From positions 1 through 41,426 of the forward strand of contig CASEKZ010000033.1 of NCBI GenBank assembly GCA_949288625.1: a stretch of 41,426 nt of DNA, given 5' to 3'. The DNA comes from an uncultured bacterium. Lineage in GTDB: Bacteria; Bacillota_I; Bacilli_A; RF39; UBA660. How positions within the stretch are numbered: position 1 is the first letter of the stretch; every line of letters starts with the position of its first letter. Below are positions 6,875 through 40,122 of this stretch, in pieces. Both the position numbers and the translations under genes were made by a program. The notes under the pieces were generated by a model. It ran no database searches. It had not been told where the DNA came from and saw nothing but the letters and a program-made list of their open reading frames with translations.

Positions 6875-7165
6875 TTAATCTATCTTTAGTATTTTTTCAC
6901 CATTTTTAGAATACAAATATTTTTCCCTTGCATATCTTGCAGCATACTCAGGATTCTTTAACTTCTCAACGTCATCAGAAAGCATCTTTTGCTCTTCTTC
7001 TAATTTTTCAAGTTGAGCAGTTAAAGTTCGTTTTTCTTCGTTTTTTTCTTTGATTTTAAATATGTTACCTACCGAAGAGACAATTGATACGCCAATTATA
7101 AAAAAACAAAATATTGAGGTTAATACAACCCTTCTACGCTCTTTTGCAGTTAATTTGTTTTCCAT
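6875..7165 (-). CDS. divIC: Septum formation initiator (FtsB/DivIC family)
   Basis: 96 aa with an N-terminal TM segment followed by a coiled coil (LTAQLEKLEEEQKMLSDDVEKLKN) and the ending EYAARYAREKY. Follows yabP-yabQ as in B. subtilis. Confidence 0.8.
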   Translation of the reverse strand: MENKLTAKERRRVVLTSIFCFFIIGVSIVSSVGNIFKIKEKNEEKRTLTAQLEKLEEEQKMLSDDVEKLKNPEYAARYAREKYLYSKNGEKILKID

Positions 7166-7216
7166 AACATCATCCCCATAATATAATGTTATTATATAAC
7201 GAAAAAAAGAAATTTT

Positions 7217-7489
7217 CTAGGTTTTTTTGTCTTTAAAGTAAAGTAATTGACAAAATAACCCACCACATATTAGAAAAATCACAATATAATAGTTAAGGAT
7301 ACCATAATTTATTTTATATAATAAAAAATAGAATGTAATAACATGAAAAAAGCAAAAAAGCACCTCACATAAAACCTTTAGTAAATTTTTTTTAAATTTT
7401 ACTAATTTTAAAGCTTTAAAACTAGCTAAAAAAAACATGCCATATATAAAAGAAAAAAATATTACTTTAAATTGACTATCCAAGCTCAT
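7217..7489 (-). CDS. yabQ: Spore cortex biosynthesis protein YabQ
   Basis: Small polytopic membrane protein directly after yabP, with overlapping stop/start at 7489. The pattern ..F..H.I.F....L....N.G....Y resembles B. subtilis YabQ. Confidence 0.7.
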   Translation of the reverse strand: MSLDSQFKVIFFSFIYGMFFLASFKALKLVKFKKNLLKVLCEVLFCFFHVITFYFLLYKINYGILNYYIVIFLICGGLFCQLLYFKDKKT

Positions 7490-7779
7490 TATTTAAATAA
7501 CCTTGATATAACAGAATCTTCTTTCTTTGCTTTTCCAACATCCAAATATGTAAAACCATCTATAATACCTTTTATCATAATGGTACCATCATACGTGTCA
7601 AGTTTTATTATCTCTAAATCCCTACCTTTTATTCCCAAGGGTCCAGTGCTAGTTTCAAGAAGAAATTCTTCGCTGTCAAAACTATCTATTTTAGTTATTC
7701 CACTTATTGTAATACTTTGTCTTTCAGTAATTGTTATATTGTGATTCATCAATGTCACTTTATCGTTGTCCTTATCCAT
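7489..7779 (-). CDS. yabP: Sporulation protein YabP
   Basis: ITISGITKIDSFDSEEFLLETSTGPLGIKGRDLEI..ISRLFK aligns with B. subtilis YabP (DITGVKHVESFDNEEFLLETVMGLLSVRGQNLQM..LGKLFK). Start at ATG 7779 with an AGGAGG SD; the track ORF is over-extended to 7869. Confidence 0.9.
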   Translation of the reverse strand: MDKDNDKVTLMNHNITITERQSITISGITKIDSFDSEEFLLETSTGPLGIKGRDLEIIKLDTYDGTIMIKGIIDGFTYLDVGKAKKEDSVISRLFK

Positions 7780-7831
7780 AAGTGCCTCCTGATAAAGTAT
7801 ATTAAAAAAAAAGAAAAATATGATAATTTGT

Positions 7832-8089
7832 TTATTCGGCTTTATTATAAGCCTCCTCAACAGCATCATCTATTTTCTTTCTTAGCTCTGCGTTAATAGG
7901 ATGAACATAATCCTTGTACTTACCATCTTGTAACTTCTTATTTGGCATTGCCGCAAAAATCTTTGTATTACCTTTAATAACTCTTATTCCGTTTACCTTT
8001 AAACAATTATCAAAAATTATTTCAGCATAACCGATCAATCTAGAATTATCATGACTTTCTTTTTTTACCAATACACTAGTTATTTCCAT
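7832..8089 (-). CDS. spoVG: Septation/sporulation regulator SpoVG
   Basis: MEITSVLVKK...LIGYAEIIFDNCLKVNGIRVIKG...FAAMPNKK is a typical SpoVG sequence. AAGGGAG SD. Confidence 0.95.
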   Translation of the reverse strand: MEITSVLVKKESHDNSRLIGYAEIIFDNCLKVNGIRVIKGNTKIFAAMPNKKLQDGKYKDYVHPINAELRKKIDDAVEEAYNKAE

Positions 8090-8161
8090 AAGATCACTCC
8101 CTTAGTTAATACTTACAATTTAATTTTAACACAATAATTAAAAAAATAGCAATTGATATTA

Positions 8162-10450
8162 CTATTTTTTTATTTTTTTTCTTAATATAATTACCACAAT
8201 AAGTAAAGCCGCAAGAGAAGAAATAATAACAACATAATTAGGAACTTTTCTTCCAGTAGTAATGGTAACCACTAACTCAGCTGATGCCCTACTTCCGTTT
8301 TGTAATACTTTTTGATCAATCATTTCTACTATATAATAATCATCCACTCCAGTATCTTTAATCGTAATAGTAGCATTTGAATCTTTATCCTCGATAAGTT
8401 CATATCCTTCAGGTGCTTCTTTTTCTACAACTCTATACTCTCCTGGTGGCAGTTTAGAAATACGAGCAATTCCCTTTTCTTCGCCTTCTTCAGAGCCATC
8501 TTTTGTAGTAATTATATATGTTGCTCCTTCATCCTCCTCAGTTAGGTTGGCATCGTAAGTATAATTACCTTCGCTAAGTTCTTTAAGCAAAACGTCTTTA
8601 TATACATTATTTACCCTCATCTGAAGAGAAAACTTACCACCTGCTAAAAATACACCATTCTCATTTTTCTTTTGAAATTCTAAACCTGTATATCCATTAG
8701 TAAGCGATATTGTTTTGTCAGAACCACAAACATTAATATTTCTATTTGGCTCCGATGGCAGCGTAAGTCCCTCAGGCGGCTTTGTTTCGGATATTGTATA
8801 ATTACAACTAGTTAATGCGTATACCTTAAGTCTTCCATTACAAGTTTTTAACTCTGTTGTTGCTCCTTCGGTATCATTATCTGCAAGTTCATAACGCCCT
8901 TGCGAAATTTCTTTAAAATATAAACTATTATCACCTTGTCTTATTTCAAACGTAGGACCAGTATAAGTATCAGTTCCACAACCATCATTTAAAACAGCAG
9001 AATTACCATTTTCATCAACAGTCATTTTTGTTAAATCAAAAACTTTTTTATCATTTGTAATCGTTATACTACCATAACTTGTAGATCCAGCAACATTTGA
9101 TGTAGAAACAGTTATAGCTCGTGGTGTTGTATCAAGTTCATAGCCTGCTGGTGCAACTGTCTCTTTAACATAATACGTTCCAGGTGCAGGAATTTCGTCA
9201 AAAGTTGCAACTCCGCTTGAATTAGTCGTTATAGTTCCAAGTACGTTAGTACATGAGCTGTTTGAACATATGTTAAACTTAGCTCCCGCTAGGTTTTCAC
9301 CCGTAGATACACCATCTATAGAAGCCTTTTTATTTATTTTTATTTGATAATAAGGTGTATATACTTTTATATATAAATCTCTTGTTGCTCCTCCAATAGA
9401 TAATACATCTTGAAGTTCGTTATCAATATAAACTTTAGTTCCATCTTCACCAACATCATTTTTATTATATACCATGATTCCAACTTTTTTTGCAGAATCT
9501 TCACTAATTGGTTTATCACTTGAAATAGTAATATAATTTGAACCAATAGTTACATCTAAATCAGATGTTAGTTTAACTCTCCAATACTGAAACTTAGTAT
9601 CATAAATTGTAAGTGTGTATTTTCCGGTTGCCGCATTCCATGATAAAGGAACAACGTTTTCAGAACCTCCTACTTTAAAGATTTTACCTCCGCTCGATTC
9701 TCCTGGGGATTTATAAAACGCGTTTTGTACCGCTGATACAATTCGATCATACTCGTTTTTCATAGCCGTTGTATCAACTGATGTACAATTATTCTTACCA
9801 TGAATAACATTATAAAAACTACAAGTAGGACCATATTCTGGCCATGTGTTATTAAAGCTTGCTCTTTCTCCGGTTACAACTTCCCAGATCATTCCTTGAG
9901 CCGCAAATATTTTATACGTACTTGATAATAAGCTAGTTTCATATTTTTTAGCAAGACCTTTTGCAATATTAGTCCAATTAGAATTATTATAATTGCCTTC
10001 TGCTATACCTCCTTGGCTTTCAGCAAACGTCATAATGTATGATATCAATATTCTTCTGTCATTATTTGTTCCCTGATCATTAGCAACAAATTGTTTACTG
10101 CTTCCATTTGTAGTAAAATAACCACCAGTATAATCAAGAAGCGAACTACCATTTGTTGCTACATATCCCCCAGTACTATTAATTGGAACTCCAGGTTCAA
10201 TACAGTAAGCATGCTTTCCATTAATCATATAAATTCCCGTATTTAAAGAATGAGTTCCTGTACTACCATTAATATTACCATTACTATCTTTTCCAATTTT
10301 CTTCATATTAAACGTAACGCCATCTGCATACGGGTGTGGATAAATTGCTCTTGTCTGAATTTTTTCAGCTTTTATATTACCACAAAACCCAAAGAAGGCT
10401 ACTAGTATTAAAGTAAATAAACTTACTTTTTTTATTATTTTATTACTCAT
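8162..10450 (-). CDS. Surface adhesin: signal peptide, putative Cys-Gln thioester domain, three Cna-B/SpaA-type (prealbumin-like) repeats, C-terminal TM anchor with basic tail
   Basis: Signal peptide KKVSLFTLILVAFFGFCGNIKA. AYCIEPG (Cys86 in track numbering, nt 10202-10204) and FAAQGMIWEV (Gln188, nt 9896-9898) fit the thioester-domain motifs [Y]C[IV][ED] and Q-x-x-[IV]-W. Repeats carry GAKFNI..GTYYVKETVAPAGYEL, YTISETKPPEGLTL and GGKFSLQ..GEYRVVEKEAPEGYEL. The tail is VTITTGRKVPNYVVIISSLAALLIVVIILRKKIKK. The start is probably ATG 10450, which overlaps the upstream stop as ATGAGTAA. Confidence 0.8.
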   Translation of the reverse strand: MSNKIIKKVSLFTLILVAFFGFCGNIKAEKIQTRAIYPHPYADGVTFNMKKIGKDSNGNINGSTGTHSLNTGIYMINGKHAYCIEPGVPINSTGGYVATNGSSLLDYTGGYFTTNGSSKQFVANDQGTNNDRRILISYIMTFAESQGGIAEGNYNNSNWTNIAKGLAKKYETSLLSSTYKIFAAQGMIWEVVTGERASFNNTWPEYGPTCSFYNVIHGKNNCTSVDTTAMKNEYDRIVSAVQNAFYKSPGESSGGKIFKVGGSENVVPLSWNAATGKYTLTIYDTKFQYWRVKLTSDLDVTIGSNYITISSDKPISEDSAKKVGIMVYNKNDVGEDGTKVYIDNELQDVLSIGGATRDLYIKVYTPYYQIKINKKASIDGVSTGENLAGAKFNICSNSSCTNVLGTITTNSSGVATFDEIPAPGTYYVKETVAPAGYELDTTPRAITVSTSNVAGSTSYGSITITNDKKVFDLTKMTVDENGNSAVLNDGCGTDTYTGPTFEIRQGDNSLYFKEISQGRYELADNDTEGATTELKTCNGRLKVYALTSCNYTISETKPPEGLTLPSEPNRNINVCGSDKTISLTNGYTGLEFQKKNENGVFLAGGKFSLQMRVNNVYKDVLLKELSEGNYTYDANLTEEDEGATYIITTKDGSEEGEEKGIARISKLPPGEYRVVEKEAPEGYELIEDKDSNATITIKDTGVDDYYIVEMIDQKVLQNGSRASAELVVTITTGRKVPNYVVIISSLAALLIVVIILRKKIKK

Positions 10451-13400
10451 TACCATCACCTTCTTCTAGTTTACTTCCACCTACAACCAGGATTTGCAAA
10501 TCTTCGTCTTCTACTTCAGCATAATTAACGAAAGACCCGGCCTCTTTTCTTATGATATCAAACGCAATCGTAAGGTACTTCTTTTCACCTGATGCAACAA
10601 GTTCGTCAAACAAAGTATCGTTTTCTAAATAACCATAATCAGTCATTACCCATCCTGCGTTTTCTTCATAATCAGGATTAAATTGCATGCCGTCTGGAAC
10701 ATAATCTTTTACTGCATAAATATATCCTGGATAATATCCTGTGTTTTCTAATTCAATTGTATAAACAACTTTTATACTTAAATTACTAATATCTTTTACA
10801 TCGAGCTTTGCTAATGTAGCGTTACCATATTCCTTTATTGTTGAAACACCTAAGTTATTAGTTGTTATAGCTCTCGTAACGTATTTTCTAACTTTTACAG
10901 AGTATTCTTTTCTTAATGCTAAACCAAGATTAATATCTCTAATAGCCCTAGTGTTTTCGGTAATTACTATGTCATCAGTTCTAACTACAGAACTTGGTGT
11001 AGCAGGTTCTTTAGGAACATCTTCGGTATCATCACAATCATCACCCTCACATGGCTTTTGTTCATCGTTTTGCAAAGTATCATCTTTATTATTATTTTCA
11101 TTTTCTTCGGTTTGGCTAGAATTGCCTTCTTCTGATGAATTTTCATCAGAAGAACCATCATCATCCAACACCTCATCTCCTGTTGATCTAAACGATGAAG
11201 TATTCGACCTGTCAGCGCTTACTTGATATGGTGATACGCCGTATTTAGCAGTATTATATTCTGCTACTACATAATAAGTACCTGGTTCTAAATCGGTTAA
11301 ACGATACTCTCCTTTTTCATCTGATGTGGTTGTTTTTATAAGTTCATCACTTTCGGAATCATATAGTTTTAACGTTACACCAGAAACCTTCTTTTCGGTT
11401 GAATCCATAATACCATTTGCATCAAAGTCTTCCCAAACCGTACCGGTTATTTGCTTACTTATTACTTCAACCCTTAATCTCTTTGAATTAGCAACTCTTC
11501 TTGTTGCTTGATTCTGCTCAGTAGGCGTACTATCCATAATTAAGTATGAATTAATAAAATATGTATCTCCAGTTTTATTAGCTATTGGAGTTATAGTCAT
11601 ACTTTGATTATAAACTTGTGCTTTTTCTAAACTTATTCCATTTACTCTAATAGCAGTTACTCCTAAATAATCACTATCTGCATAATTGCTACAATCTTCC
11701 CACGTGATTTCTTGACCAGAAATTAATCTGTCATTATCTGCTATTAACGTTGGCAAACTAGTAGTACATAACGCACCTTGAGGTAAATTAGAGATTGTAT
11801 AAGTTCCAGTGTAAGAAGTTTTATTACTTACATCATTATAAGGAAGTAACGTTACAATATCTAGGTTTGATCTTGTTATGTTACTATTGTTATATAGTGC
11901 CGTATTAACATCAAAACTTGTTTCCTTGGCAATTGCCGTATTTGGTGTATATAGTGCATGTGCTACTATCTCGTTATTTTGATACGTTATTGTTCTTGTT
12001 GTTGTTCTTGCAGCAACTGAAGAAGCATCTGAAATTTCAGAAGTTGATTCAGCTTGAATTAAAACGCTTACGGTTTTCTTTGCACCTGACTGAATGTTTA
12101 TATCATAACTTACATTAAAGTAAATTGGATCAATCCACTCATTAACACTTTTATCCTTTAATACGTAAGTTAACTTTTTACCTCCAGCACTTACCGTTGG
12201 AATATCATAGTTCTCATTATAAACATAATTTAAACCATCAGGTAAAGTAACTTCTATCGTAATGTTTTTTAACTTATTAATACTAGCAACATTGGTATTT
12301 ACGCTTTGAGCAGGCAAACTAACAGTTGGATATATTGCCCATGTAGAACTACTAGTGTTTGCCCCATTTATTATTATATCTTGTTCACTTCCATCAACAA
12401 ATACGCTTGTCCTTGCTTTAAAAGCTGTTATACCAACGGAAGATGAACCAGAAACATCTTTTGTTGTTAAAGAATCATTTTCTTTTTCATCATACGTAGA
12501 CGTAGAAGTCATAGTAACGATTCCAGCATGATTTCCAACATTCGTTATTAATCTTAATCTAAAATCCACTTCTGTTCCTGGTGCAACATCCGTAATTGTA
12601 TATGTCACGTATGCTAATTTTAAATCAGAATTTTCAGCTAACGCTTCATTTAATTCATTAAAGCTATTATATGAAGTAGTATCACCCTCACATGCATCAC
12701 CTTTAGAATTAATTTTACAAGCATAATATTTAACTGTAATTTCTTTATCCTTTAATTTGTCATTATTACTATTTATATAATATGGCTCAGTATCTTCAAG
12801 CTCACTACTATATTCTGTCATTGTAAATGGTGAGGCCGGATTATTGGTTGATGTTCCTAATCCAACAGGTATGGTTGTAGTTAACGTTCCTATGTTATCA
12901 TCACCATCAGCAGAATAATAAAATACTGATCTTAATATAACTTCTTCACCATATGCCAGCATATCATTATTGGATAAAGGTGTTAAAGCACCAGAAGAAT
13001 CAAGTGTGTTGAAAGTTAACGTATTAGTTTTAGTACCAACAGAATGATTTGGATTTGTAACTGGATCTGATGAAACAGGTGCTGAATCTGTACCTTTAAT
13101 GCTAGCTTTTAAAGTTACTAAGATATCTTGTGTAATTTCTTTAGGTCTTTCTGATTTTGCTGTTACAAAATAAGAACCTAACGCAGCAAAATTATTATCA
13201 TAAAAGTTTATTGTGCCATCTGATTTAATTCCAGTAATTTTAACTAAATATTTTGTTTGAATATTAACCATATTACTAGTTTGAATTACATAACCATCAG
13301 CAGTTACGGTATATACTGCTTTATACGTACCAGCTTTATTTTTATTAACGCTAGTTTCTTTATTAGTAATAGGATTATAATATGTTACTTTACAACTAGA

Positions 13401-15152
13401 ATTTTCGTTACATTCCTTATCTTCACCATTAATATTAACTATTGGATTACCAAAAGTTCCATCAGAAACAGCAGAAATTGTTCTTGCGATTAACGTTCCT
13501 GCCTTAGTGTAAGAATAATTATCAACCACCATAACAACTCTTGTGAAAGTAATTACTTGTGGCTCAGGTTCGTTTTCTTCTGAAGTTTCTTCTTCCGTAT
13601 TTGAACCATCTGCTTTTGAATCCGGATTTTCTTCATCAACATCAGGTTCTTGCGAAGTTTGCGTATCCACAACCGTATACGTTACTTTATATGTGCCAGG
13701 TTCTTTCGTATTAATTTCCGGTATTTCTTCATCATCTTTAGTAATAACTATGTCATAATTATAAAAGTTTTCTCCATCCTTTAATAGTCCTTGTTCATTA
13801 TATTTAGAATTCGTTTTTAAAATAATATTTTTATTACCTTTTAAAGAATATGAAGAGTCATTTAAAGTTTGTGTTTCTTTATCGGTAACATTAACGTTTC
13901 TTATTAAAGTTGTTTTGCTATCGTTTTCACCCGCATACTCATATGTTATCGTGTATTTACCAACGCTTTTTGTAATATCATTTTGTGCAACCGAAACACC
14001 ATTTTCGTTAGTAATTATCCTTGTGCATCCATTTCTAGTAGAATTTGTAGTACAAATCACATCACCATTTTCGGTTAGTGATACACCATACTCATAATAA
14101 GTATCTCCAACCTGTAACTGTATTTCTTTTTCACCAATTAAGTATAAATCAGGATTGTTAGTTTCTACGTTAGAGCCGCTAACTCCTTCTGCCGACTTTT
14201 CTAGCGAATTAAAAGTACCAGAGTTATATACCGAATATTGCATATAATCCTTAATGTAATGTGGCATAGAAGGAAGTAAATTAGAACTTTTATTATATAA
14301 ACCAAAATATTTTTTGTTTTCCGCTCCAGACATTAACTCTATCTGAACGTCGTTACCATTTATCTCTTGTGTTGCTTCTAAAACTAAGTCTACGTTAGGA
14401 TCAAAATATAAACCTTCTAAACTATTTCCACTAGTTAAGTTGGATTTATCAATTCCAATCAAAATACCAAAAGGTGCTAACCTACCATCAACATAATCTT
14501 GTGATTTATACGCGGTACCAGAAACAAGCTTTGCCTTTAAATCAACTTTTTTACTTTCAACCGTGATACTTTTTGTGCCTATACCAGTGAACTCAGATGC
14601 AGTTGATTCTTTTATTTCTATTTTCGTTTCAATATTAGTACCATTAGGCACGTTATTTACCTTTAAATATAACTGCTTATTATTAGGCTCACCAACTTGT
14701 GTTTGATAAATCGTTGCGTATAACGTTCTGTTATCATCATCTAACGTATACGTTGCTTCCGTATCTTGTATTACCCATTCGGCATCAATTCCCTCATTAA
14801 AAGTGGCCTTAATAATAACTTGATCACGGGTAACAATTTGATCAGATGGCAAATCCGCTACCGCCAACTTGTAAGATATATCATATACTATCGTACTAAA
14901 ACTTTTAATGGTAGTAACTTCTTCACTACTAGAAACGCTTTTTTGCTGCACTGATGCTGTAACAGAAACCCTTCCCGCATACTCATCAGAATTGGTAGCA
15001 AAAACTATAAGGGCAACTATACTAGACATTAAAAAAATACCAATAAACGCTGATATATACTTATGTTCTTTAGCAAAGTTAGTTAATCTTATTCTTTGTA
15101 TAATAAACCAATCTTTTATTTTGCTTTTAAAATTAGATTTTGTCATATTCAT
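10443..15152 (-). CDS. Giant (about 1570 aa) N-terminally membrane-anchored surface protein with bacterial Ig-like repeats, an SdrD-B-like domain, acidic linkers and a C-terminal DUF11-like domain
   Basis: Start ATG 15152 (MNMTKSNF..) with a GGGAGG SD. Signal-anchor YISAFIGIFLMSSIVALIVFA. Ig-like repeats ending ..GKYTITYEYAG, ..PGTYKVTYTVVD and ..AGTYKAVYTVTADG. SdrD-B-like ITGTVWEDFDANGIMDSTEKKVSGVTLKLYD..DEKGEYRLTDLEPGTYYV (about 11225-11470). Asp/Glu/Ser/Asn-rich linkers at about 13540-13660 and 10985-11180. DUF11-like KVVYTIELENTGYYPGYIYAVKDYVPDGMQF. No C-terminal anchor or LPXTG. Confidence 0.8.
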   Translation of the reverse strand: MNMTKSNFKSKIKDWFIIQRIRLTNFAKEHKYISAFIGIFLMSSIVALIVFATNSDEYAGRVSVTASVQQKSVSSSEEVTTIKSFSTIVYDISYKLAVADLPSDQIVTRDQVIIKATFNEGIDAEWVIQDTEATYTLDDDNRTLYATIYQTQVGEPNNKQLYLKVNNVPNGTNIETKIEIKESTASEFTGIGTKSITVESKKVDLKAKLVSGTAYKSQDYVDGRLAPFGILIGIDKSNLTSGNSLEGLYFDPNVDLVLEATQEINGNDVQIELMSGAENKKYFGLYNKSSNLLPSMPHYIKDYMQYSVYNSGTFNSLEKSAEGVSGSNVETNNPDLYLIGEKEIQLQVGDTYYEYGVSLTENGDVICTTNSTRNGCTRIITNENGVSVAQNDITKSVGKYTITYEYAGENDSKTTLIRNVNVTDKETQTLNDSSYSLKGNKNIILKTNSKYNEQGLLKDGENFYNYDIVITKDDEEIPEINTKEPGTYKVTYTVVDTQTSQEPDVDEENPDSKADGSNTEEETSEENEPEPQVITFTRVVMVVDNYSYTKAGTLIARTISAVSDGTFGNPIVNINGEDKECNENSSCKVTYYNPITNKETSVNKNKAGTYKAVYTVTADGYVIQTSNMVNIQTKYLVKITGIKSDGTINFYDNNFAALGSYFVTAKSERPKEITQDILVTLKASIKGTDSAPVSSDPVTNPNHSVGTKTNTLTFNTLDSSGALTPLSNNDMLAYGEEVILRSVFYYSADGDDNIGTLTTTIPVGLGTSTNNPASPFTMTEYSSELEDTEPYYINSNNDKLKDKEITVKYYACKINSKGDACEGDTTSYNSFNELNEALAENSDLKLAYVTYTITDVAPGTEVDFRLRLITNVGNHAGIVTMTSTSTYDEKENDSLTTKDVSGSSSVGITAFKARTSVFVDGSEQDIIINGANTSSSTWAIYPTVSLPAQSVNTNVASINKLKNITIEVTLPDGLNYVYNENYDIPTVSAGGKKLTYVLKDKSVNEWIDPIYFNVSYDINIQSGAKKTVSVLIQAESTSEISDASSVAARTTTRTITYQNNEIVAHALYTPNTAIAKETSFDVNTALYNNSNITRSNLDIVTLLPYNDVSNKTSYTGTYTISNLPQGALCTTSLPTLIADNDRLISGQEITWEDCSNYADSDYLGVTAIRVNGISLEKAQVYNQSMTITPIANKTGDTYFINSYLIMDSTPTEQNQATRRVANSKRLRVEVISKQITGTVWEDFDANGIMDSTEKKVSGVTLKLYDSESDELIKTTTSDEKGEYRLTDLEPGTYYVVAEYNTAKYGVSPYQVSADRSNTSSFRSTGDEVLDDDGSSDENSSEEGNSSQTEENENNNKDDTLQNDEQKPCEGDDCDDTEDVPKEPATPSSVVRTDDIVITENTRAIRDINLGLALRKEYSVKVRKYVTRAITTNNLGVSTIKEYGNATLAKLDVKDISNLSIKVVYTIELENTGYYPGYIYAVKDYVPDGMQFNPDYEENAGWVMTDYGYLENDTLFDELVASGEKKYLTIAFDIIRKEAGSFVNYAEVEDEDLQILVVGGSKLEEGDGNE

Positions 15153-15241
15153 AGTATAGACCTCCCATTCTAGCTTATACATTATAATTTAACCATAAAT
15201 AAGAAGAAAAATCAACAATCACAACAAAAAAAGTCCATGCA

Positions 15242-15448
15242 TCATGAACTTATAACAACAGCGTTTATTAAAACATCAGAATAACCAAAACTTTTTATAT
15301 CCGTACTGGTTTTAAGCGTCCAGACGTTTTTGTAAGTATTTAAGATTATTCCTTCATATACCTCGCTTTTATTTCTTCCAACATCAACGTATATTTTTAC
15401 CTTTTTCCCTTTAAAACCTGCCACTTTATTTCTTATTTCATTTATCAA
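15242..15448 (-). CDS. veg: Veg protein (biofilm/sporulation-associated small DNA-binding protein family)
   Basis: 68 aa. I..I...V....GKKVKIYVDVGRNKSEVYEGIILNTYKNVW... fits the Veg family. Follows yabG as in B. subtilis. TTG start with a GGGAGTG SD. Confidence 0.8.
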   Translation of the reverse strand: MINEIRNKVAGFKGKKVKIYVDVGRNKSEVYEGIILNTYKNVWTLKTSTDIKSFGYSDVLINAVVISS

Positions 15449-15463
15449 ATAATCACTCCCATC

Positions 15464-16216
15464 TTACCTAGGATACCCAATTGTCATAACTCCTCTTGTA
15501 TTAACTCCGCCAATTCCATCTTTTCCGTTACTTGTTTTTTCTAAAAGATTAAGTAAATCAACGTTTTTATTCTTATCAAACAAACTAAGCGATAAAGCTA
15601 TAATTGCCGGATCTAGTGCATGAATGTTCATCTTTTTAGGACTTGATGCAAAATTAGCGCCAGCTTTTATAAGACTCTCATAATCCGACTGACAAGCACC
15701 AGCTATTATAATTAATTTATCATAATCCCTTTGGTACTTACGACATACTTTAACAGCATCCACAAAATATTTAGAATTCTTTTTCACTTGAGAATCATGT
15801 CCGGTTATAACCACGATGTCTGGATTAATATCTTCCATGTATTTTTCAATGTTTTCTGCCATCTTATCTTCTGGTGAGAAAACACCATAGGCAAGTACGT
15901 TGCCTTTTTTATAAAAATCTAAACACCTACTCAAATACTCTCTATCACCATCTACATGAAGTATTTTTCCAGGAATATAAAAATAATCACTTCTTTCAAA
16001 GTCTCTTATGGTATCTAATTTTTCATAAAACACACGATCATCTTCACTATCTTTAGTTTCTATTAAAACCAAATCATCAATACTACTATCCGCGCATAGC
16101 CTTACGTTTACTCCTTTTAAATAAACAGTGTTATCTACTATTTTTTCTATTTTAAAAATAACATCATTATTATGTGATATTCTTGTAACTAAATCTCCAA
16201 CTTTTAACAATATCAT
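15464..16216 (-). CDS. yabG: Sporulation-specific protease YabG
   Basis: Strong similarity to B. subtilis YabG: GKILHVDGDREYLSRCLDFYKK, PDIVVITGHD, IIAGACQSDYESLIKAGANFASSPKKMNIHALDP, GGVNTRGVMTIGYP. The exact start is uncertain (ATG 16216, or TTG 16210, which has better SD spacing). Confidence 0.9.
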   Translation of the reverse strand: MILLKVGDLVTRISHNNDVIFKIEKIVDNTVYLKGVNVRLCADSSIDDLVLIETKDSEDDRVFYEKLDTIRDFERSDYFYIPGKILHVDGDREYLSRCLDFYKKGNVLAYGVFSPEDKMAENIEKYMEDINPDIVVITGHDSQVKKNSKYFVDAVKVCRKYQRDYDKLIIIAGACQSDYESLIKAGANFASSPKKMNIHALDPAIIALSLSLFDKNKNVDLLNLLEKTSNGKDGIGGVNTRGVMTIGYPR

Positions 16217-16259
16217 CACCCAATAAAATATATGCATTAAAAAAACTAAACATGATTGT

Positions 16260-17075
16260 TTAGCTTAAATTATTCGCAACATCTATAAACTCATCAATAC
16301 TTATGTTTTCTGCTCTAGAATTTATAGTCTTATTATATTTTGCTAAAATTTCATTTATTTTAACCAAATCATAATTTCTTAAATTATTTTTTAAGGTTTT
16401 CCTTTTTTGGGAAAAAGAATCTTTAACTAACTTAAAAAATACGTTTTCATTCTTTAAAAAAGCTTTTTTATTTTTTTTCGTGAAAACAACAACCGCTGAA
16501 TCTACGTTAGGTTTTGGATAAAAAACGTTCTTTGATACGGTAAAAGCTTTTTTGATATCAAAATAATAATTCAAAAATATTGTTAATGAATTATACGACT
16601 TAGAGTTTGGTCTAGCAGAAAACCTATCGGCAACCTCGTTTTGAACCATAACTATTATTTTTTCCACATCAACTTTTTCTTCTATAAACTTTGTTATTAT
16701 AGGCGTTGTTATGTAATAAGGAAGATTTGCAACAACGTATAATTTATCATAATTATATTTTTTTATATCTTGATTTATATCACGTTTTAAAAAATCATCA
16801 TAAATAATTTCGACGTTATCATTGTCTTTTAAAATTTTTTCTAATGGCTTTTCTAAGGTTTTGTCTATCTCATAACCTAATACATTTTGTGCTTTAATCG
16901 CAAGCTTTTTTGTTAAAGCCCCGGCTCCTACACCAATTTCAATAACCAATGTGTTTTTTGTTATATAAGATGTATTTATTATGTTATTAAGAACGTTTTG
17001 ATCCAATAAAAAATTTTGACCAAACCTTTTTTTAAAAATAAAATTATTATCATTTAGTATTTGTTTTGCATTCAT
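16260..17075 (-). CDS. rsmA: 16S rRNA (adenine1518/1519-N6)-dimethyltransferase
   Basis: RFGQNFLLDQNV, EIGVGAGALT and ANLPYYITTPII motifs. Synteny with tatD and yabG. Confidence 0.95.
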   Translation of the reverse strand: MNAKQILNDNNFIFKKRFGQNFLLDQNVLNNIINTSYITKNTLVIEIGVGAGALTKKLAIKAQNVLGYEIDKTLEKPLEKILKDNDNVEIIYDDFLKRDINQDIKKYNYDKLYVVANLPYYITTPIITKFIEEKVDVEKIIVMVQNEVADRFSARPNSKSYNSLTIFLNYYFDIKKAFTVSKNVFYPKPNVDSAVVVFTKKNKKAFLKNENVFFKLVKDSFSQKRKTLKNNLRNYDLVKINEILAKYNKTINSRAENISIDEFIDVANNLS

Positions 17076-17150: not shown

Positions 17151-17732
17151 TTACCAAGAAACCGCAATATCAATCTGTGTAGAATTATTTTCGGCAAACC
17201 CTCCTGTGTCACATACGATTGCATACCCAAGGGAACTTTCTATTATAGTTCCTCGCGGACGAATTTCAAAGTTTGCTGCTATCATTACGTAATCGCCAAG
17301 CATTTTAACTCCATCATCACGAATCCAATATGGGTATTCTTCTTCAGAATAACCTAAACGACGCATTGTATTAATTACGTTTGTCATGTTTAAATTATAA
17401 TATGTTTCTTTTCCAGACGGGCCATAAACAACGCCTTTACTTTTAGTAAGTACATCTCCAGACCAATTAAAAGCTGGTAAAGTATTTGCTTTTTTTGTTG
17501 TTGCTTGTTGCGTGGTTGTAGTCACACTTTCCTGTGTGCTTAGTTCCTCAACGACTGCAGAAGAAGCAACATAATTATTAGGGTCAAACGTTTTTTTAGT
17601 AGTAGAAACAGTAATTACATCTCCACCATTTACGGAAAATAATATTCCGGCCTTTGAAAAACCAATAAATGCTATTAAACAAACCACAAGGATTAGTAAA
17701 GCACCCTTAATTTTTCTATTAAAATGTTTCAC
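17151..17732 (-). CDS. 3D-domain (YabE/YuiC-like, RlpA-type double-psi beta-barrel) cell-wall protein with N-terminal signal-anchor
   Basis: C-terminus YVMIAANFEIRPRGTIIESSLGYAIVCDTGGF..IDIAVSW is a typical 3D domain. It occupies the B. subtilis yabE position after tatD. Start reassigned to GTG 17732 (VKHFNRKIKGALLILVV..), which has an AGAGGTG SD; the track start is 17795. Confidence 0.75.
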   Translation of the reverse strand: MKHFNRKIKGALLILVVCLIAFIGFSKAGILFSVNGGDVITVSTTKKTFDPNNYVASSAVVEELSTQESVTTTTQQATTKKANTLPAFNWSGDVLTKSKGVVYGPSGKETYYNLNMTNVINTMRRLGYSEEEYPYWIRDDGVKMLGDYVMIAANFEIRPRGTIIESSLGYAIVCDTGGFAENNSTQIDIAVSW

Positions 17733-17784
17733 TTTTTCACCTCTTACCCTTTCGGGTTCGTATTTAATGTTATCATAAATGCCA

Positions 17785-18537
17785 CTATAAGTCAAATTTT
17801 GAGCAAACTGAATCCGCGCTTATCTTTATTACTTCACTTTCTTTCATACCTTTTATTTGAGCTATTTTTTTAGCTACTAAAATAACGTTTTTAGGCACGT
17901 TTTTCATACCACGATAAGGCTCAGGAGATAAGTACGGGCTATCCGTTTCTAATGATAAATAGCTAATATCTACCTTTTTTACCACTTCTTGTAAAGCTTT
18001 TGCATTTTTAAAGGTAACTACGCCGCCAATGCCTAATAAAAATCCTAATTTAGTAAAATTATTAGCCATCTGTATGCTTCCTGAATAACAATGTAATATT
18101 CCTTTAACATTATATTCTTTAAGTAAATTATACGTGTCTAAAAAGGCTTTTCTACAATGTACTATTACCGGTAAGCCGTTTTCATTTGCAATTTTAAGCA
18201 TTTCTTTAAATACGGTAATTTGTTTGTTTTTGTTTTTTTTTGTCCAATAATAATCAAGCCCTATTTCGCCTACTGCAACAACTTTATCATTATGTACTAA
18301 TTCATTAATCATATCATATGTATATTCATTATAGTTTTCTACGTTTTGAGGACTAATACCAACTGCTGCATATACGTTTTCATAACTACTAGCTAAAAAA
18401 ACAGCTTCTTTACTAGATTCTAAATCATAACCATTAATAATAATTTTATCTACGCCAGAATTAAAAGAATCTTCTATAATCTTCTTAGGATCTTCATATT
18501 CACTTGATAAAACATGACAATGAGAATCAATTAACAT
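17785..18537 (-). CDS. tatD: TatD-family metal-dependent DNase/hydrolase
   Basis: LIDSHCHV, GEIGLDYYW, PVIVHCRKA, ILHCYSG and ETDSPYLSP motifs. Start at ATG 18537 (MLIDSH..) with a GGTGA SD. Confidence 0.92.
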   Translation of the reverse strand: MLIDSHCHVLSSEYEDPKKIIEDSFNSGVDKIIINGYDLESSKEAVFLASSYENVYAAVGISPQNVENYNEYTYDMINELVHNDKVVAVGEIGLDYYWTKKNKNKQITVFKEMLKIANENGLPVIVHCRKAFLDTYNLLKEYNVKGILHCYSGSIQMANNFTKLGFLLGIGGVVTFKNAKALQEVVKKVDISYLSLETDSPYLSPEPYRGMKNVPKNVILVAKKIAQIKGMKESEVIKISADSVCSKFDL

Positions 18538-36724: not shown

Positions 36725-38074
36725 TTATATTTTACTTTTTAAAGCTTCAAGAATGGTTTTAAACTGTGGATTAATTTTTATTTCATTTTCGATTTTATCA
36801 ACGGAATGCATAATCGTTGAATGATCTCTTCCACCAAATTGAATTCCTATTTTTGGAAAAGATTCATCAGTTAACGTTCTACATAAGTAAATTGCTACCT
36901 GTCTTGGAAAAGCAATACTAGCCTTTCTTTTTTTAGATTTTAAATCCTCTACCGTTATGTTATAATATTCTGCCACAATTTGCTGAATTTTTTGAATATT
37001 ATTTTTTGTAAATGAAGATTTTGATAAGTAATCTTTTAAAGCATCGATTGCTAGGTTTAAGTTTATGTTACTTGTGTTAAACATAGTTGCATAAGCGATA
37101 ACCCTAGTTAATGCTCCTTCTAATTGTCTTACGTCTGAATCACAATTATTAGCTATATAAGCTATAACATCATCATTAATTGTTCCATCCATGTTTTGAC
37201 CAATTATTTTTTTTCTTAGAATTTCTACCCTCATTTCATAATCAGGTGGATAAATGTTAACACTTAATCCCCAATTAAATCTTGTTCTTAACCTATCTTC
37301 TAATTTTTTTAAATCATCAGGTGATCTATCTGATGATATTATTATTTGCTTATTATCATCATACAAGTTGTTGAAAGTATTAAAAAATTCTTGTTGAGTT
37401 TGTGTTGCTCCACCTAAAAACTGAATATCATCAATAATTAAAACGTCTACCCCACGATATTTATTCTTAAAACTATCTATGTAGCTAAAATTGGTACCTG
37501 ATTCATCTTTCTTATTAATATTAAGAAAATCTGATATAAATTGTTCACTAGTTACGTATAAAACTTTTTTATTTGAGTTTTCAATGATGTAGTTTCCAAT
37601 TGCGTGCATAAGATGAGTTTTCCCTAATCCGCTATTTCCGTATAAAAATAATGGATTATAAGTTTTTCCAGGATTTTCTGCCACTGAAACTGATGCCATG
37701 TAAGCAAATTTATTACTTTCTCCTACTATAAAAGAATCAAAAGTATACTTTGCATTTAAATTAGATTTTTCAGGAGTATTTAATGGTACCCCTATGTTTT
37801 CCACAGAAATTTTAACGTTATTTTTAATTTCATCTTCAAAAACAAATTCAAAATCAAAGCTTGTATTTGTTATTTCACTAAAAACATCTGATATTGTTTG
37901 ATACCAAGTTTCTTGTAAACTCTTTTTTTGAAGCGGTGAATCAACAAGTATTTTAGCTATGTTGTTATCAAGTGATACTAATTTGGTATTTTTAAACCAG
38001 GTATCATATGACAATGAAGATATTCTTGGTTTAATTTTTTCTAGGAAATTAAGCCATAGATTATCTATGTTCAT
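36725..38074 (-). CDS. dnaA: Chromosomal replication initiator protein DnaA
   Basis: GNSGLGKTHLMHAIGN, LIIDDIQFL, domain IV FGGRDHSTIMHSVDKI. Start at ATG 38074 (MNIDNLWLNFLEKIK) with an AAAGGAGG SD. The track ORF extension to 38185 crosses DnaA boxes. Confidence 0.97.
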   Translation of the reverse strand: MNIDNLWLNFLEKIKPRISSLSYDTWFKNTKLVSLDNNIAKILVDSPLQKKSLQETWYQTISDVFSEITNTSFDFEFVFEDEIKNNVKISVENIGVPLNTPEKSNLNAKYTFDSFIVGESNKFAYMASVSVAENPGKTYNPLFLYGNSGLGKTHLMHAIGNYIIENSNKKVLYVTSEQFISDFLNINKKDESGTNFSYIDSFKNKYRGVDVLIIDDIQFLGGATQTQQEFFNTFNNLYDDNKQIIISSDRSPDDLKKLEDRLRTRFNWGLSVNIYPPDYEMRVEILRKKIIGQNMDGTINDDVIAYIANNCDSDVRQLEGALTRVIAYATMFNTSNINLNLAIDALKDYLSKSSFTKNNIQKIQQIVAEYYNITVEDLKSKKRKASIAFPRQVAIYLCRTLTDESFPKIGIQFGGRDHSTIMHSVDKIENEIKINPQFKTILEALKSKI

Positions 38075-38553
38075 AATAACCTCCTTTCCCCCTATAAATG
38101 AGTTATTTGTATATATTTTATCAAAAAAATTGTGGAAAAACAACGTATAAAGTTTAATAATTAATTTTCCACAATAGTTTTCCACAAGAAAAAAACAATT
38201 ATTTCAACAAAATATGACATTATTAACTTTTCCACAAAAAAAATAAATGTTGATAAAATAATTAACACATAAAAGTTATCCACAATATGTTTAAAATTGT
38301 TTTATTATATAAAAATAAACCATTTTTTTATTAAATTTTGTGGAAAACTATGTTAATAATTTTATTTTTTATTTTTACAATATTAATAACCTGTGGAAAA
38401 GTATGATTTATTAATAATCATAGTTTGTCTTTAAGTTGTATAACTTTTTCATATCTATATATGCATATGAAAACTTACGTTATATTAATTGGTAATATTT
38501 CTGATAAAAATTAATAATTATAACTGTATATATATAACTGTATATAAAAAAGG
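38075..38553. other. oriC, upstream-of-dnaA DnaA-box cluster and AT-rich region
   Basis: Boxes: TGTGGAAAA at 38131-38139, 38339-38347 and 38392-38400; TTTTCCACA at 38165-38173, 38178-38186 and 38228-38236; perfect TTATCCACA at 38276-38284. An AT-rich tract follows up to the rpmH promoter. Confidence 0.85.
38519..38546 (+). repeat. Perfect tandem 14-mer (TATAACTGTATATA x2) abutting the rpmH -35
   Basis: Copies at 38519-38532 and 38533-38546 are identical, and the repeat ends 7 nt before TTGACA. Confidence 0.8.
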
Positions 38554-38582
38554 TTGACAATTAACATAATAAAACGTATAAT
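38554..38582 (+). promoter_or_regulatory. Consensus sigma-A promoter of rpmH
   Basis: TTGACA (38554-38559), a 17-nt spacer, then TATAAT (38577-38582). GGAGGTGG SD at 38603-38610. Confidence 0.8.
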
Positions 38583-38615
38583 ATTCGTGTTTAAAAAGAG
38601 CTGGAGGTGGATTAA

Positions 38616-38744
38616 ATGAAAAGACCTTTTCAACCAAATAATAATAAAAGAAAAAAGAAACATGGTTTTTTTGCAAGAAAATTAGCTGGAACAGGTATTA
38701 TTAATAAAAGAAGAGCAAAAAAACGTGAGAAATTATCAGCATAA
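38616..38744 (+). CDS. rpmH: 50S ribosomal protein L34
   Basis: Not in the ORF track (42 aa). [42 protein letters not shown] fits the L34 consensus (MKRT[FY]QP...R...HGFR.RM.T..G...L..RR.KGR..L). Upstream of rnpA. Confidence 0.95.
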
Positions 38745-38746
38745 TT

Positions 38747-38772
38747 CCACTTATTTAAATAAGTGGTTTTTT
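38747..38772 (+). terminator. Intrinsic terminator/attenuator between rpmH and rnpA
   Basis: CCACTTATTTAAATAAGTGG (a 20-nt palindrome, giving a stem of about 8 bp) followed by TTTTTT, 3 nt after the rpmH stop. Confidence 0.7.
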
Positions 38773-38801
38773 GTTATATTCTTATAAAGAGGTGAGTTGT
38801 T

Positions 38802-39116
38802 TTGAAGAAAATAAACATAGTTAAAGAAAAAAAAGATTTTGATAGGGCTTTTAAGCTTAATAATCAAAAAAAATCAAAATATGCCTTTTTATATACATGT
38901 AATTCTAAAAATAATTATCGATTTGGTATTTGTGTTTCAAAAAAACTAGGTAATGCGGTAACTAGAAATAAGCTAAAACGCCAAATAAAGGATATTATAG
39001 ACAAATCAAAGTTGCATTTTGAAAACAAAGATTATATAATTGTATTAAAGAAAAGTGCTGTTGGTACTGAGTATTTAAAATTAAAAGAAGATATACTTAA
39101 TCTTTTAGAAAAATAA
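38802..39116 (+). CDS. rnpA: Ribonuclease P protein component
   Basis: KKLGNAVTRNKLKRQIKD (RNR-like motif). 104 aa. TTG start with an AAAGAGGTGAG SD. Located between rpmH and yidC. Confidence 0.9.
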   Translation: MKKINIVKEKKDFDRAFKLNNQKKSKYAFLYTCNSKNNYRFGICVSKKLGNAVTRNKLKRQIKDIIDKSKLHFENKDYIIVLKKSAVGTEYLKLKEDILNLLEK

Positions 39117-39138
39117 AATGAATAGGAGATAAAAATAA

Positions 39139-40122
39139 ATGAAAAAACTAAAAAAAATAATCATAGTTTTTTTACTGTTTTTTTTACTTTCTGGTTGTAC
39201 GAAACAGCTAGTGGTTGAAAAGACTAATGATGATGGTAAAAAAACAGAAGTAGTTGTTAAATATGATGAGGGTAAAAACGCAACGGGGCAAACACTAACA
39301 GAAAATATACTATGTAGTCCAAGTGATAAAGATTTAGTTAATATATATAACAAAAATGGAGTAGATACAGATAAAATCGTTAGTTGTGAAAAATTTAAAC
39401 CATCGTTAAATAATGATGAGGGAATATGGGATAATATCTTTGTAAAACCACTGGCATGGGTAATTTTAAAATTAGGATATTTAGTTAAAAACTTCGGTTT
39501 GGCTGTTATTTTAGCAGGCTTAGTTATAAGATTAATTTTATATCCGGTAACTAAAAAAACCGCAATGCAATCAGAAAATTTAAAAAAAGCACAACCTGAA
39601 TTACAAAAACTAGAAAAAAAATATGCTAACAAAGCTGATGATCAACAAGCAATGCTTCAAAAGAGTCAAGAGATGATGGCAATTTATAAAAAATATAATA
39701 TTTCGTTATTTTCAGGATGCATAATTGCCTTTATACAATTACCTTTGTTTATTGCGTTTTTAGAAGCTATAAATAGAACACCTGCAATTTTTGAAGGACA
39801 TTTTTTAGGTTTACAGTTAGGAACAACGCCATGGTTTGCCTTAAGTCAAGGTAGTTGGTGGTATGTTATAATACCAATAATCGTATTTTTAGTAACATTC
39901 TTCTCATTTAAATTTACACGAAATGATGTGACGAATGATTCTAATCCAGCAGCTGGATCTACTAAGATAATGATGAATGTAATGGTAGTAGTTATAACGA
40001 TAAGCTCATTTCAATTATCAACCGCAATTGGTTTATACTGGATAACTTCAAGTTTGTTTACTATCATTCAAAACTTATTAGTGGCAAGAGGTGGTAATAG
40101 TGCTAAAATTAAAAAGTTATAA
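39139..40122 (+). CDS. yidC: Membrane protein insertase YidC/SpoIIIJ (lipoprotein type)
   Basis: Lipobox LLSGC. RLILYPVTKKTAMQSENLKKAQPELQKLEKKY and polytopic C-terminal part LYWITSSLFTIIQN. Confidence 0.93.
   Translation: MKKLKKIIIVFLLFFLLSGCTKQLVVEKTNDDGKKTEVVVKYDEGKNATGQTLTENILCSPSDKDLVNIYNKNGVDTDKIVSCEKFKPSLNNDEGIWDNIFVKPLAWVILKLGYLVKNFGLAVILAGLVIRLILYPVTKKTAMQSENLKKAQPELQKLEKKYANKADDQQAMLQKSQEMMAIYKKYNISLFSGCIIAFIQLPLFIAFLEAINRTPAIFEGHFLGLQLGTTPWFALSQGSWWYVIIPIIVFLVTFFSFKFTRNDVTNDSNPAAGSTKIMMNVMVVVITISSFQLSTAIGLYWITSSLFTIIQNLLVARGGNSAKIKKL

Follow-up and report, generated by a model that had tools for sequence, protein, structure and literature searches.

The stretch of DNA analysed here (hereafter the window) comprises the 41,426 nucleotides (nt) of contig CASEKZ010000033.1 from an uncultured bacterium of the order RF39, and holds, between the VEG-family gene veg (15242..15448) and the SpoVG-family gene spoVG (7832..8089), two long, overlapping minus-strand open reading frames (ORFs) at 10443..15182 and 8162..10459, as had been described in the original prediction, which was made from the sequence alone. 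Gene 1 (10443..15152, minus strand) encodes a giant all-beta fibrillar surface protein of 1569 residues, referred to below as BIG, and gene 2 (8162..10450, minus strand) encodes a TIE-type thioester adhesin of 762 residues, both assignments being based on the ORFs, Pfam profiles, AF2 models and Foldseek comparisons. The pair is probably a lineage-specific, membrane-anchored adhesion module of the vegetative cell surface, in which the TIE adhesin and its giant partner would be held by transmembrane (TM) segments and a juxtamembrane peptide of the adhesin would serve as a docking element.

The refined start of gene 1 is the ATG at 15152, which lies behind the ribosome-binding site (RBS) GGGAGG (15166-15161) and gives an exact match to a database protein of 1569 residues (P0121). 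The upstream ATG at 15182 was rejected as a start, since it falls within the promoter and the database protein has 1569 residues. Gene 2 starts at the ATG at 10450 behind the Shine-Dalgarno sequence AGGTGA, and its 762-residue product also has an exact database match (P0001). From this ATG on, gene 2 shares 8 nt with the end of gene 1; in relatives, too, the genes overlap or directly adjoin each other, and together they form a bicistronic, translationally coupled operon. Residues of the gene 2 protein are numbered here from the GTG at 10459 (a 765-residue ORF), hence 3 has to be subtracted to obtain positions in the 762-residue protein.

The gene 2 protein begins with a cleavable Sec signal peptide (10367..10450, minus strand) that runs from MSNKIIKK to GNIKA with the predicted cut before Glu, as read from the sequence; A31 is invariant and the peptide is modelled as a helix with a low pLDDT (predicted local distance difference test). 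A lipoprotein reading of the FGFCGN stretch within it was rejected, because the stretch does not form a lipobox and homologues have Ser in place of the Cys. The signal peptide is followed by a thioester domain with a beta-sandwich lobe (9365..10363, minus strand). Thioester domains are defined by three motifs, [YFL]C-phi-zeta, phi-Q-zeta-phi-phi and TQXX-phi-W (PMC6194298), and all three can be recognised here: Cys86 (10202-10204) lies in YCIE (Y85-C86-I-E), Gln350 (9410-9412) in LQDVL (L-Q350-D-V-L), and Gln188 and Trp192 in AAQGMIW (A-Q188-G-M-I-W192, with the Thr of the motif replaced by Ala). Y85, C86, Q188, W192, Q350 and D351 are invariant in 23 homologues, and the thioester Cys and Gln are also kept in the most distant group, where the Cys motif reads F/Y-C-[IV]-[EDQ]-P. 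A Cys86-Gln350 thioester bond is therefore predicted, Gln350 being inferred from its position to be the bond-forming Gln.

The Pfam TED profile (PF08341) matches gene 2 marginally, at 23.5 bits against a cut-off of 22 (24.9 bits in a paralogue), and is also listed for P0025-P0035, and the TED_2 profile (PF20610) stays below its cut-off. The thioester-domain call is strengthened by the invariance of the motifs and by the AF2 model (mean pLDDT 82), for which the best Foldseek match in the PDB is 6fwv, the Bacillus anthracis protein BaTIE (E 2.9e-24, 727 aligned columns), followed by pilins. Beyond the head lie three SpaA/CnaB-type stalk domains (8312..9364, minus strand; Pfam SpaA x3, E 4e-31, with PDB profile matches to pilins and collagen adhesins), which carry conserved Lys-Glu-Asn/Asp positions, as is characteristic of CnaB isopeptide domains, at K377/E433/N-or-D470, K478/E558/N588 and K598/E679/D-or-N715. 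In sequence and in modelled fold, the gene 2 protein is thus a TIE-type thioester adhesin that shows the tested characters of TIE/TED proteins except for the near-universal LPXTG. The signal peptide, thioester domain, three SpaA/CnaB repeats and C-terminal TM segment that had been proposed for it are all borne out by Pfam, the invariant motifs and the AF2/Foldseek results.

Compared with BaTIE (PDB 6fwv; PMC6194298, PMC4450167), gene 2 is alike in its signal peptide, its N-terminal thioester domain with the characteristic motifs, its beta-sandwich lobe and its three CnaB stalk domains. In contrast to BaTIE and other TIE proteins, it has no LPXTG and instead carries an AEL..TIxTGR peptide before the TM helix, it is co-encoded and coupled with a partner of 1200-1600 residues (a solo copy described below excepted), and it is found at one constant chromosomal site, in gut bacteria of reduced genome size. 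A precedent for a sortase-independent TIE adhesin is provided by TIEpLS20 (p34) of the B. subtilis plasmid pLS20, a class II-type thioester adhesin with CnaB domains which lacks LPXTG, is sortase-free and mediates cell-cell attachment (PMC8092201). Both proteins lack LPXTG, whereas TIEpLS20 has no C-terminal TM segment and is borne on a plasmid within a conjugation operon, and the similarity of gene 2 to plasmid TIE proteins is remote.

Conservation is distributed very unevenly along the adhesin, the mean identity being 33% in the thioester head, 61-69% in the stalk and 87% in the juxtamembrane peptide. In addition, gene 2 occurs twice in the metagenome-assembled genome (MAG) CAKOWI01, at the veg-spoVG position (L021:9926-12250) and as a solo copy (L020:9758-12007) between a HAD hydrolase gene and metG, in the context dnaJ-sigA-ATPase-HAD-metG. 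From about residue 336 onwards (~414 residues) their sequences are 100% identical, and in the heads the identity drops to ~45%, which suggests head swapping or gene conversion, or possibly an assembly effect. Together with the identity gradient, these paralogues suggest a conserved stalk and anchor that carry exchangeable heads, and a hypervariable head on a fixed base is what one would expect of an adhesin under pressure to change its specificity or antigenicity.

The C-terminus of the gene 2 protein reads EMIDQK, VLQNGSRAS, AELVVTITTGRKVPNY, VVIISSLAALLIVVIIL and RKKIKK. The juxtamembrane peptide AELVVTITTGRKVPNY (8234..8281, minus strand) is near-invariant, and its core, AEL[IV]xT[IV]xTGR, recurs in each of the 40 loci that were examined. 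Its codons vary freely at synonymous sites, with all four Ala and all four Thr codons used among 37 nucleotide versions, and this saturation indicates that selection acts on the peptide and not on the DNA. In the AF2 model the peptide is unstructured (pLDDT 31-35) and connects the last CnaB domain with a TM helix that is predicted confidently. A phmmer search with the 56-residue tail against 1.84 billion representative proteins found it only at the extreme C-terminus of the gene 2 family; three matches outside the family were internal repeats, not tails, and were dismissed as spurious. A word-index homology search with a 50-residue tail returned no match, as no words were shared. The peptide is followed by the TM helix (VVIISSLAALLIVVIIL; AF2 helix 742-763) and the basic tail RKKIKK (8165..8233, minus strand), around which N741, Y742, L749, L753, R760 and K765 are invariant.

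An LPXTG signal is present in nearly all TIE proteins (PMC4450167), and the gene 2 tail has the geometry of a cell-wall sorting signal, in which T-I-x-T-G precedes six polar residues, a hydrophobic stretch of about 17 and RKKIKK; hence it probably derives from one. It might also still function in this way, as a non-canonical sortase or transpeptidase signal that is cut between the Thr and Gly of T-I-x-T-G and linked to BIG through one of its lysines, or else to peptidoglycan, which would yield a wall-anchored adhesin or a short two-protein pilus-like fibre. We give this explanation a modest chance of being correct. Apart from the three-part layout and the near-universality of LPXTG among TIE proteins, it is favoured by the motif itself, in which the third position varies (T/I/S/K/N) and T-G is fixed, and by the E-box-like motifs that are present in the stalk. 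However, the motif has no Pro at its second position, and its conservation exceeds the five residues of a sorting motif, reaching AEL upstream and R and NY downstream and continuing into the TM helix. Moreover, the tail occurs on no other protein family, a regular-expression search found neither an LPXTG-like signal nor the YPK pilin motif in either protein of the pair, and the Pfam family Gram_pos_anchor matches neither.

The occurrence of sortases bears on the same question from both sides. Neither the window nor the ~10 kb around the pair in ~40 loci contains a sortase when searched with clade-specific queries, with the exception of the locus L036 (L036:271-11714, CAYOAY010000034.1), and the earlier claim that LPXTG is missing from both proteins and a sortase from the window is thus upheld. 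The method matters here, as the L036 sortase is missed by tblastn with Staphylococcus aureus SrtA, whereas Pfam PF04203 and the clade-specific queries detect it. The gene order in L036 is gene 1, gene 2, a third protein, a sortase, HU and an IS110 transposase. Its gene 2 product has 1119 residues, six SpaA domains and, as elsewhere, a TIxTGR tail, the third protein (499 residues) has a TED and two SpaA domains and ends in ELPNTG, a hydrophobic stretch and EKKHI, and the sortase has 177 residues (PF04203, E 4e-16). In three more MAGs of the clade (L124:404-2474, L125:6575-8540 and L126:6160-8149) a TED protein ending in LPNTG or LPKTG, a sortase and HU follow one another, away from the veg locus. 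Across this module the TED proteins have 480-504 residues and the sortases 177-183, and the latter remain unclassified, since they score below the class C and class D cut-offs.

A small sortase is accordingly encoded in at least four genomes of the clade and could act on the adhesin, and in L036 the pair lies directly upstream of it. The veg locus of the same MAG (L054) has neither the pair nor spoVG, and the L036 arrangement therefore looks derived. The original prediction had specified that relatives with the pair next to a class B/C sortase and LPXTG signals would make the locus an ordinary pilus or adhesin locus; the L036 pair does adjoin a sortase, but the LPXTG belongs to the third protein and the arrangement appears to be secondary. 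Compared with the pair, the LP[NK]TG module occurs in the same organisms and has the same warhead and stalk domain types, but it possesses a canonical signal and an adjacent sortase, a shorter TED protein with two SpaA domains, no giant partner and another locus. Within one and the same genome, the sortase-adjacent protein ends in an ordinary, poorly conserved LP[NK]TG and gene 2 in a long invariant peptide; the two tails are thus under different constraints, and this difference favours a retained anchor with a docking peptide.

Similarly, the pair can be compared with the Cpa/FCT pili of Streptococcus pyogenes, which are sortase-assembled pili with a thioester tip adhesin and are mentioned in PMC6194298. 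Both systems have a thioester head on an isopeptide-type stalk, an adjoining gene for a large surface protein and E-box-like motifs, but the pair has no pilus-type sortase in its locus (L036 excepted), no LPXTG and no YPK, and its partner protein is predicted to be anchored at its N-terminus. The marks of a pilus locus that were looked for are thus absent, including a class C sortase, given that the L036 enzyme falls below that cut-off.

BIG, the partner protein, starts with a basic cytoplasmic N-tail (residues 1-33; 15054..15152, minus strand), defined by an alignment of 21 homologues and a translation check, in which D14, I18, I21, R22, N25, F26 and K28-E29-H30-K31-Y32 are near-invariant. 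According to the same alignment, it continues with a hydrophobic signal-anchor or TM segment (residues 34-53; 14994..15053, minus strand) with invariant S34, F40, S43 and A52. Because basic residues precede the helix, the N-terminus is likely to be inside and the C-terminus outside, which supports the opposite membrane topologies that had been proposed for the two proteins. Bacterial Ig-like repeats (PF16403) occupy residues 336-630 (13263..14147, minus strand), where Pfam and the conservation profile delineate two significant Bact_surface_Ig-like stretches split by a first acidic linker. An SdrD_B-like domain (PF17210, E 3e-16) extends over residues 1231-1412 (10917..11462, minus strand) and contains a disordered acidic insert at ~1321-1380; it is found in 21 of 21 homologues, matches SdrD in a PDB profile comparison (6.7e-20) and is 64-80% identical across the family, the insert being disordered in the AF2 model. 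The Pfam families of BIG recur in 18-21 of the 21 homologues, and no family in Pfam or NCBIfam accounts for the rest of the protein (about 1100 of 1569 residues).

The last domain of BIG, a C-terminal beta-sandwich (residues 1413-1560; 10473..10916, minus strand), is its most conserved part (71-84% identity in 21 homologues), ends in the strand DEDLQILVV and matches no Pfam family in either the window protein or the 21 homologues. Its identity remains at 51-60% even where the middle of the protein has been replaced. Taken as a module, residues 1231-1560 show 64-84% identity, the central part of BIG is variable and in some lineages has been replaced, and the N-tail, the TM segment and the C-terminal module are the most conserved parts of the protein. 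As for the domains proposed earlier, the SdrD_B-like domain, the Ig-like repeats (as two significant stretches) and both acidic low-complexity stretches are real; the second acidic stretch is, however, an insert inside the SdrD_B-like domain and not an interdomain linker, and the DUF11-like C-terminal domain lacks profile support, with no match to PF01345 or TIGR01451 at E <= 0.1 in BIG or at E <= 0.01 in the 21 homologues. A Lys1423-Glu1467-Asn1543 isopeptide in the C-terminal domain was considered as a candidate and was not confirmed from secondary structure alone. The strand DEDLQILVV itself (10473-10500, BIG residues ~1549-1557), a short one of low confidence, is a second conserved beta-prone peptide of the pair.

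The AF2 model of residues 631-1569 (mean pLDDT 74) consists entirely of beta-sandwich domains and one disordered acidic insert. Its Foldseek matches are generic stalk proteins (the Ig-like domains of PrgB, SdrD, UafA, macroglobulin and integrin legs), and no enzyme fold was found in this part of the protein. BIG therefore shares the beta-sandwich chain of MSCRAMM and other fibrillar adhesins of the SdrD/UafA/PrgB type, including SdrD_B, and these give its best Foldseek matches; unlike them, it has no LPXTG and no recognisable A region (no Pfam match), and it possesses the conserved N-tail and TM segment.

The N-terminal region of BIG also allows for a different arrangement, in which it would act as a long YSIRK-like signal peptide, the giant protein would be freed by signal peptidase, and its C-terminal module would bind the juxtamembrane peptide of the adhesin by beta-strand addition. 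The hydrophobic segment ends in VFA, whose invariant Ala52 possibly marks a signal-peptidase site, and BIG has no C-terminal anchor. Furthermore, the two most conserved elements of the pair are precisely the C-terminal module of BIG and the unstructured, beta-prone peptide of the adhesin, and both the pairing of the genes and their translational coupling are conserved. The hydrophobic segment, however, with its 20 residues and conserved small residues (S34, G38, S43), looks more like a retained TM helix, and a conserved cytoplasmic tail would be hard to explain if it were discarded, so we hold the release of the giant protein to be unlikely. A more speculative proposal, and rather a long shot, is that AEL[IV]xT[IV]xTGR is an undescribed sorting or assembly signal, at which a dedicated transpeptidase (which could be the small sortase of the clade) would cut between Thr and Gly and join the adhesin to the C-terminal module of BIG, to give a covalent two-protein fibre with a thioester tip that needs no pilus locus and would be the main attachment organelle of RF39.

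The distribution of the pair was determined by a gene 2 profile scan over one genome per GTDB species, which yielded 33 loci onto which the window proteins were mapped. Of the 33 species genomes, ~31 have the pair at the veg-spoVG junction, as do several metagenome contigs, even where the identity of gene 2 falls to 31-37%, and one metagenome form with a shorter gene 1 (1182 residues) occupies the same junction. A second scan, seeded with yabG, compared pair-bearing and sister lineages and revealed a sharp break, the pair being present where yabG is at least 72% identical. In ~60 sister-lineage loci (yabG 53-58% identical), including Mycoplasma sp. CAG:877, Clostridium sp. CAG:914 and Ca. Faecimonas, the order is rsmA-yabG-veg-spoVG-yabP-divIC without the pair, and the gap between veg and spoVG is ~100 nt. 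The genes sspF-ispE-purR-yabJ of B. subtilis are absent across the whole group. The pair-bearing clade lies within RF39 and includes CAG-594, the GTDB genus of the order RF39 and family CAG-433 that corresponds to Ca. Aphodocola (PMC8035907). RF39 itself has not been cultured; its genomes are small, and its cells are predicted to possess a wall and to form spores (PMC10868615).

The fixed junction in the clade and the empty junction in its sisters point to a single insertion in the ancestor of the clade, and the pair is an ancient, vertically inherited and fixed insertion. The term cassette, which had been applied to it originally, is thus apt insofar as the pair is inserted relative to sister lineages, but not in the sense of a mobile element. 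A recently acquired mobile adhesin island might be suspected, because the pair interrupts an otherwise conserved gene order, its GC content (~0.32-0.34) is slightly higher than that of its neighbours, and other accessory genes occur at the same junction in sister lineages. Yet the position is identical in ~35 species, down to ~31% protein identity, and, as had been noted at the outset, the window has no tRNA, its gene calls include no integrase or transposase, and the only direct or inverted repeats that flank the pair are AT-rich chance matches. Relatives on plasmids are remote only (24-29% identity or less), and a plasmid origin was rejected on this account. Synteny effectively refutes a recent mobile origin, which has hardly any chance of being correct.

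The veg-spoVG junction of some pair-less RF39-like genomes (L099:10097-10489, L100:9988-10428, L102:4452-5903, L064:10047-11111 and L097/L103 at ~10020-11280) holds other accessory genes, namely a type IV prepilin-like gene (N_methyl motif), a gene for an N-anchored BspA-type leucine-rich repeat protein, an antitoxin-like gene and a gene for a DUF3419 protein, and accessory genes, often for surface proteins, appear to have landed at this junction repeatedly. Insertions also occur between veg and gene 1. In L035 (L035:3106-5368) a 2.2-kb insert encodes a 515-residue GNAT-radical SAM-SPASM fusion followed by a 49-residue acidic, Cys-containing peptide, which looks like a cassette for a ribosomally synthesised and post-translationally modified peptide (RiPP), and the promoter is kept next to gene 1; in L034 (L034:4390-5086) a ~600-nt fragment with a transposase-like ORF is present, and the veg hairpin is duplicated on both sides. 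In L021/L058 and L035, all within the clade, spoVG is absent and yabP directly follows the adhesin gene. Several MAGs of this RF39-type clade (L015, L028, L034, L036, L048, L054, L056 and others) are titled 'uncultured Muribaculaceae bacterium', and one sister-lineage MAG each is titled 'Ignavibacteriales' and 'Bacteroidaceae'; all these titles look like mislabelled taxonomy.

Signals for the expression of the operon, which had escaped the original prediction, were found upstream of gene 1. Where veg ends, a terminator scan identified a hairpin and T-run that resemble a terminator (AAGTTCATGATGCATGGACTT TTTTTGTTGT; 15221..15251, minus strand, hairpin 15251..15231); the hairpin is kept in almost all related loci, and the element separates veg from the operon. 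Directly downstream lies a promoter-like element (15187..15215, minus strand) that consists of TTGATT (15215-15210), a 17-nt spacer ending in TATGg (a TRTG element at -16) and TTAAAT (15192-15187), with a conserved 5' untranslated region and the RBS GGGAGG behind it. A block of this kind, with TTGAYT, 17 nt ending in T[AG]TG-n, TTAAAT and then TAAAATGTATAYACTAGAATGGAGG, is conserved in ~35 loci, and it stays with gene 1 even where other DNA separates the latter from veg (L034, L035). The element resembles a sigma-A-like promoter with a -16 TRTG element and a weak -10. An Rfam scan of 7000-16500 detected no RNA family.

At the other end of the operon, neither the window nor the related loci have a GC-rich terminator hairpin between gene 2 and spoVG, in agreement with the initial impression that no convincing terminator is present, and read-through of the operon transcript into spoVG is thus likely. 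The promoter scan found a promoter-like element for spoVG (8123..8152, minus strand; TTGCTA, 18 nt, TGtTAAAAT), which is conserved in related loci as TTGCTA-N17/18-TGTGnTAAAAT and starts ~10 nt past the stop codon of gene 2. The spoVG gene here accordingly has a conserved sigma-A-like extended -10 element, unlike that of B. subtilis, where the spoVG promoter is recognised by sigma-H. An AT-rich inverted repeat (8123-8188; 31-nt arms, 81% complementary, 4-nt loop) spans the gene 2 stop and the spoVG element and is not a typical intrinsic terminator.

The neighbourhood of the pair gave rise to the suggestion that it is a spore- or mother-cell-associated surface structure, expressed together with its sporulation neighbours. 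Homologues of yabG, spoVT, yabP and yabQ lie nearby, no terminator precedes spoVG, and RF39 is predicted to sporulate (PMC10868615). Both proteins, however, have Sec-type export signals and TM anchors, which would place them outside the cytoplasmic membrane, whereas the coat and exosporium assemble in the mother-cell cytoplasm. By inspection, the conserved promoter element, with its TTGAYT -35 and TRTG -16 parts, does not fit the consensus of sigma-E, K, F, G or H and lacks a CATA-type -10, and readings of the conserved 5' region as a sigma-H, sigma-G or sigma-K promoter were rejected by eye because of their spacing or the absence of CATA or AGGA. In addition, sister lineages have the same sporulation neighbours with an empty junction, and in B. 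subtilis neither veg nor spoVG is sporulation-specific. The suggestion is hence very improbable.

The wider gene order confirms the earlier statement that the window follows B. subtilis from dnaA to rpoB, as judged from Pfam gene calls. In the precomputed Pfam annotation of the same 74-kb metagenome contig, mfd, a spoVT-like gene, tatD, rsmA, yabG, veg, the pair, spoVG, yabP and divIC are followed by the genes for mini-RNase III, rlmB, sigH, secE, nusG, rplK/A/J/L and rpoB, and dnaA, dnaN, recF, gyrB, gyrA, dnaX, holB and pth lie further upstream. The sign of the GC skew switches near 38 kb, at 38186-39138, between dnaA (36725-38185, minus strand) and yidC (39139-40122, plus strand), and this interval is likely to be the replication origin. 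The operon would then be co-directional with replication, on the leading strand, ~23-30 kb from the origin. Between tatD and rsmA an ORF of 214 residues (17151-17795) encodes a protein with an N-terminal TM segment and no Pfam match that is 60-80% identical across the clade, and in L005 its position is taken by a gene with a Glucosaminidase domain.

If the pair is indeed an adhesion module, its activity can be pictured as follows. Transcription would start at the operon's own promoter just past the veg terminator and probably read through into spoVG. Gene 1 would give rise to a giant all-beta fibrillar protein held with its N-terminus inside and its C-terminus outside by the conserved N-tail and TM segment, and gene 2 to a Sec-secreted TIE adhesin, in which the thioester domain (Cys86-Gln350) would tip the three CnaB/SpaA stalk domains and the C-terminal TM helix and basic tail would keep the protein in the membrane. 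On vegetative cells the predicted thioester may react with a nucleophile of its target and thereby attach the cell covalently, the target being presumably host mucosal material or another microbe. The head would diversify between species on a stalk and an anchor that stay fixed. Finally, AEL[IV]xT[IV]xTGR and the conserved faces of the TM helix may form a docking element, for which the co-encoded giant protein would be the likeliest partner.

Several observations weigh against this picture. The tail of the adhesin is laid out as a cell-wall sorting signal, sortases exist in at least four genomes of the clade, in L036 directly downstream of the pair, and RF39 has been reported to retain srtA/B (PMC10868615). 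No giant gene adjoins the solo paralogue in L020, so co-encoding with a partner may be dispensable for the adhesin, and Ala52 in VFA, if it is a cleavage site, could mean that BIG is not anchored at its N-terminus. Furthermore, the thioester bond is a prediction, and the promoter was assigned by eye, matches the consensus at 8 of 12 positions with a T at -11, and is not listed by the consensus scan.

To conclude, thioester adhesins of this type are known from Gram-positive bacteria, and the main interest of this new form lies in the family-specific invariant tail, in its coexistence with a canonical LPXTG/sortase thioester protein in the same genomes and in the likely attachment role; the pair is not a spore structure, nor does it represent a new type of machinery. 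The uncultured RF39 bacteria, whose genomes are reduced, are widespread in the guts of humans and animals, and no description of their surface or attachment biology was found in the literature. A 7-kb operon that is kept at one origin-proximal junction across the clade, with a hypervariable covalent-binding head and an invariant base, is a strong candidate for attachment to the host or to a partner. Gene 2 is a natural thioester adhesin in which the position of LPXTG has been taken by a different, strictly conserved peptide, and since an LPXTG-plus-sortase thioester protein coexists in the same clade, the pair offers a clean test case for how TIE adhesins are anchored and assembled without the usual signal. 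Importantly, the operon may also provide a handle for capturing or culturing RF39 bacteria.

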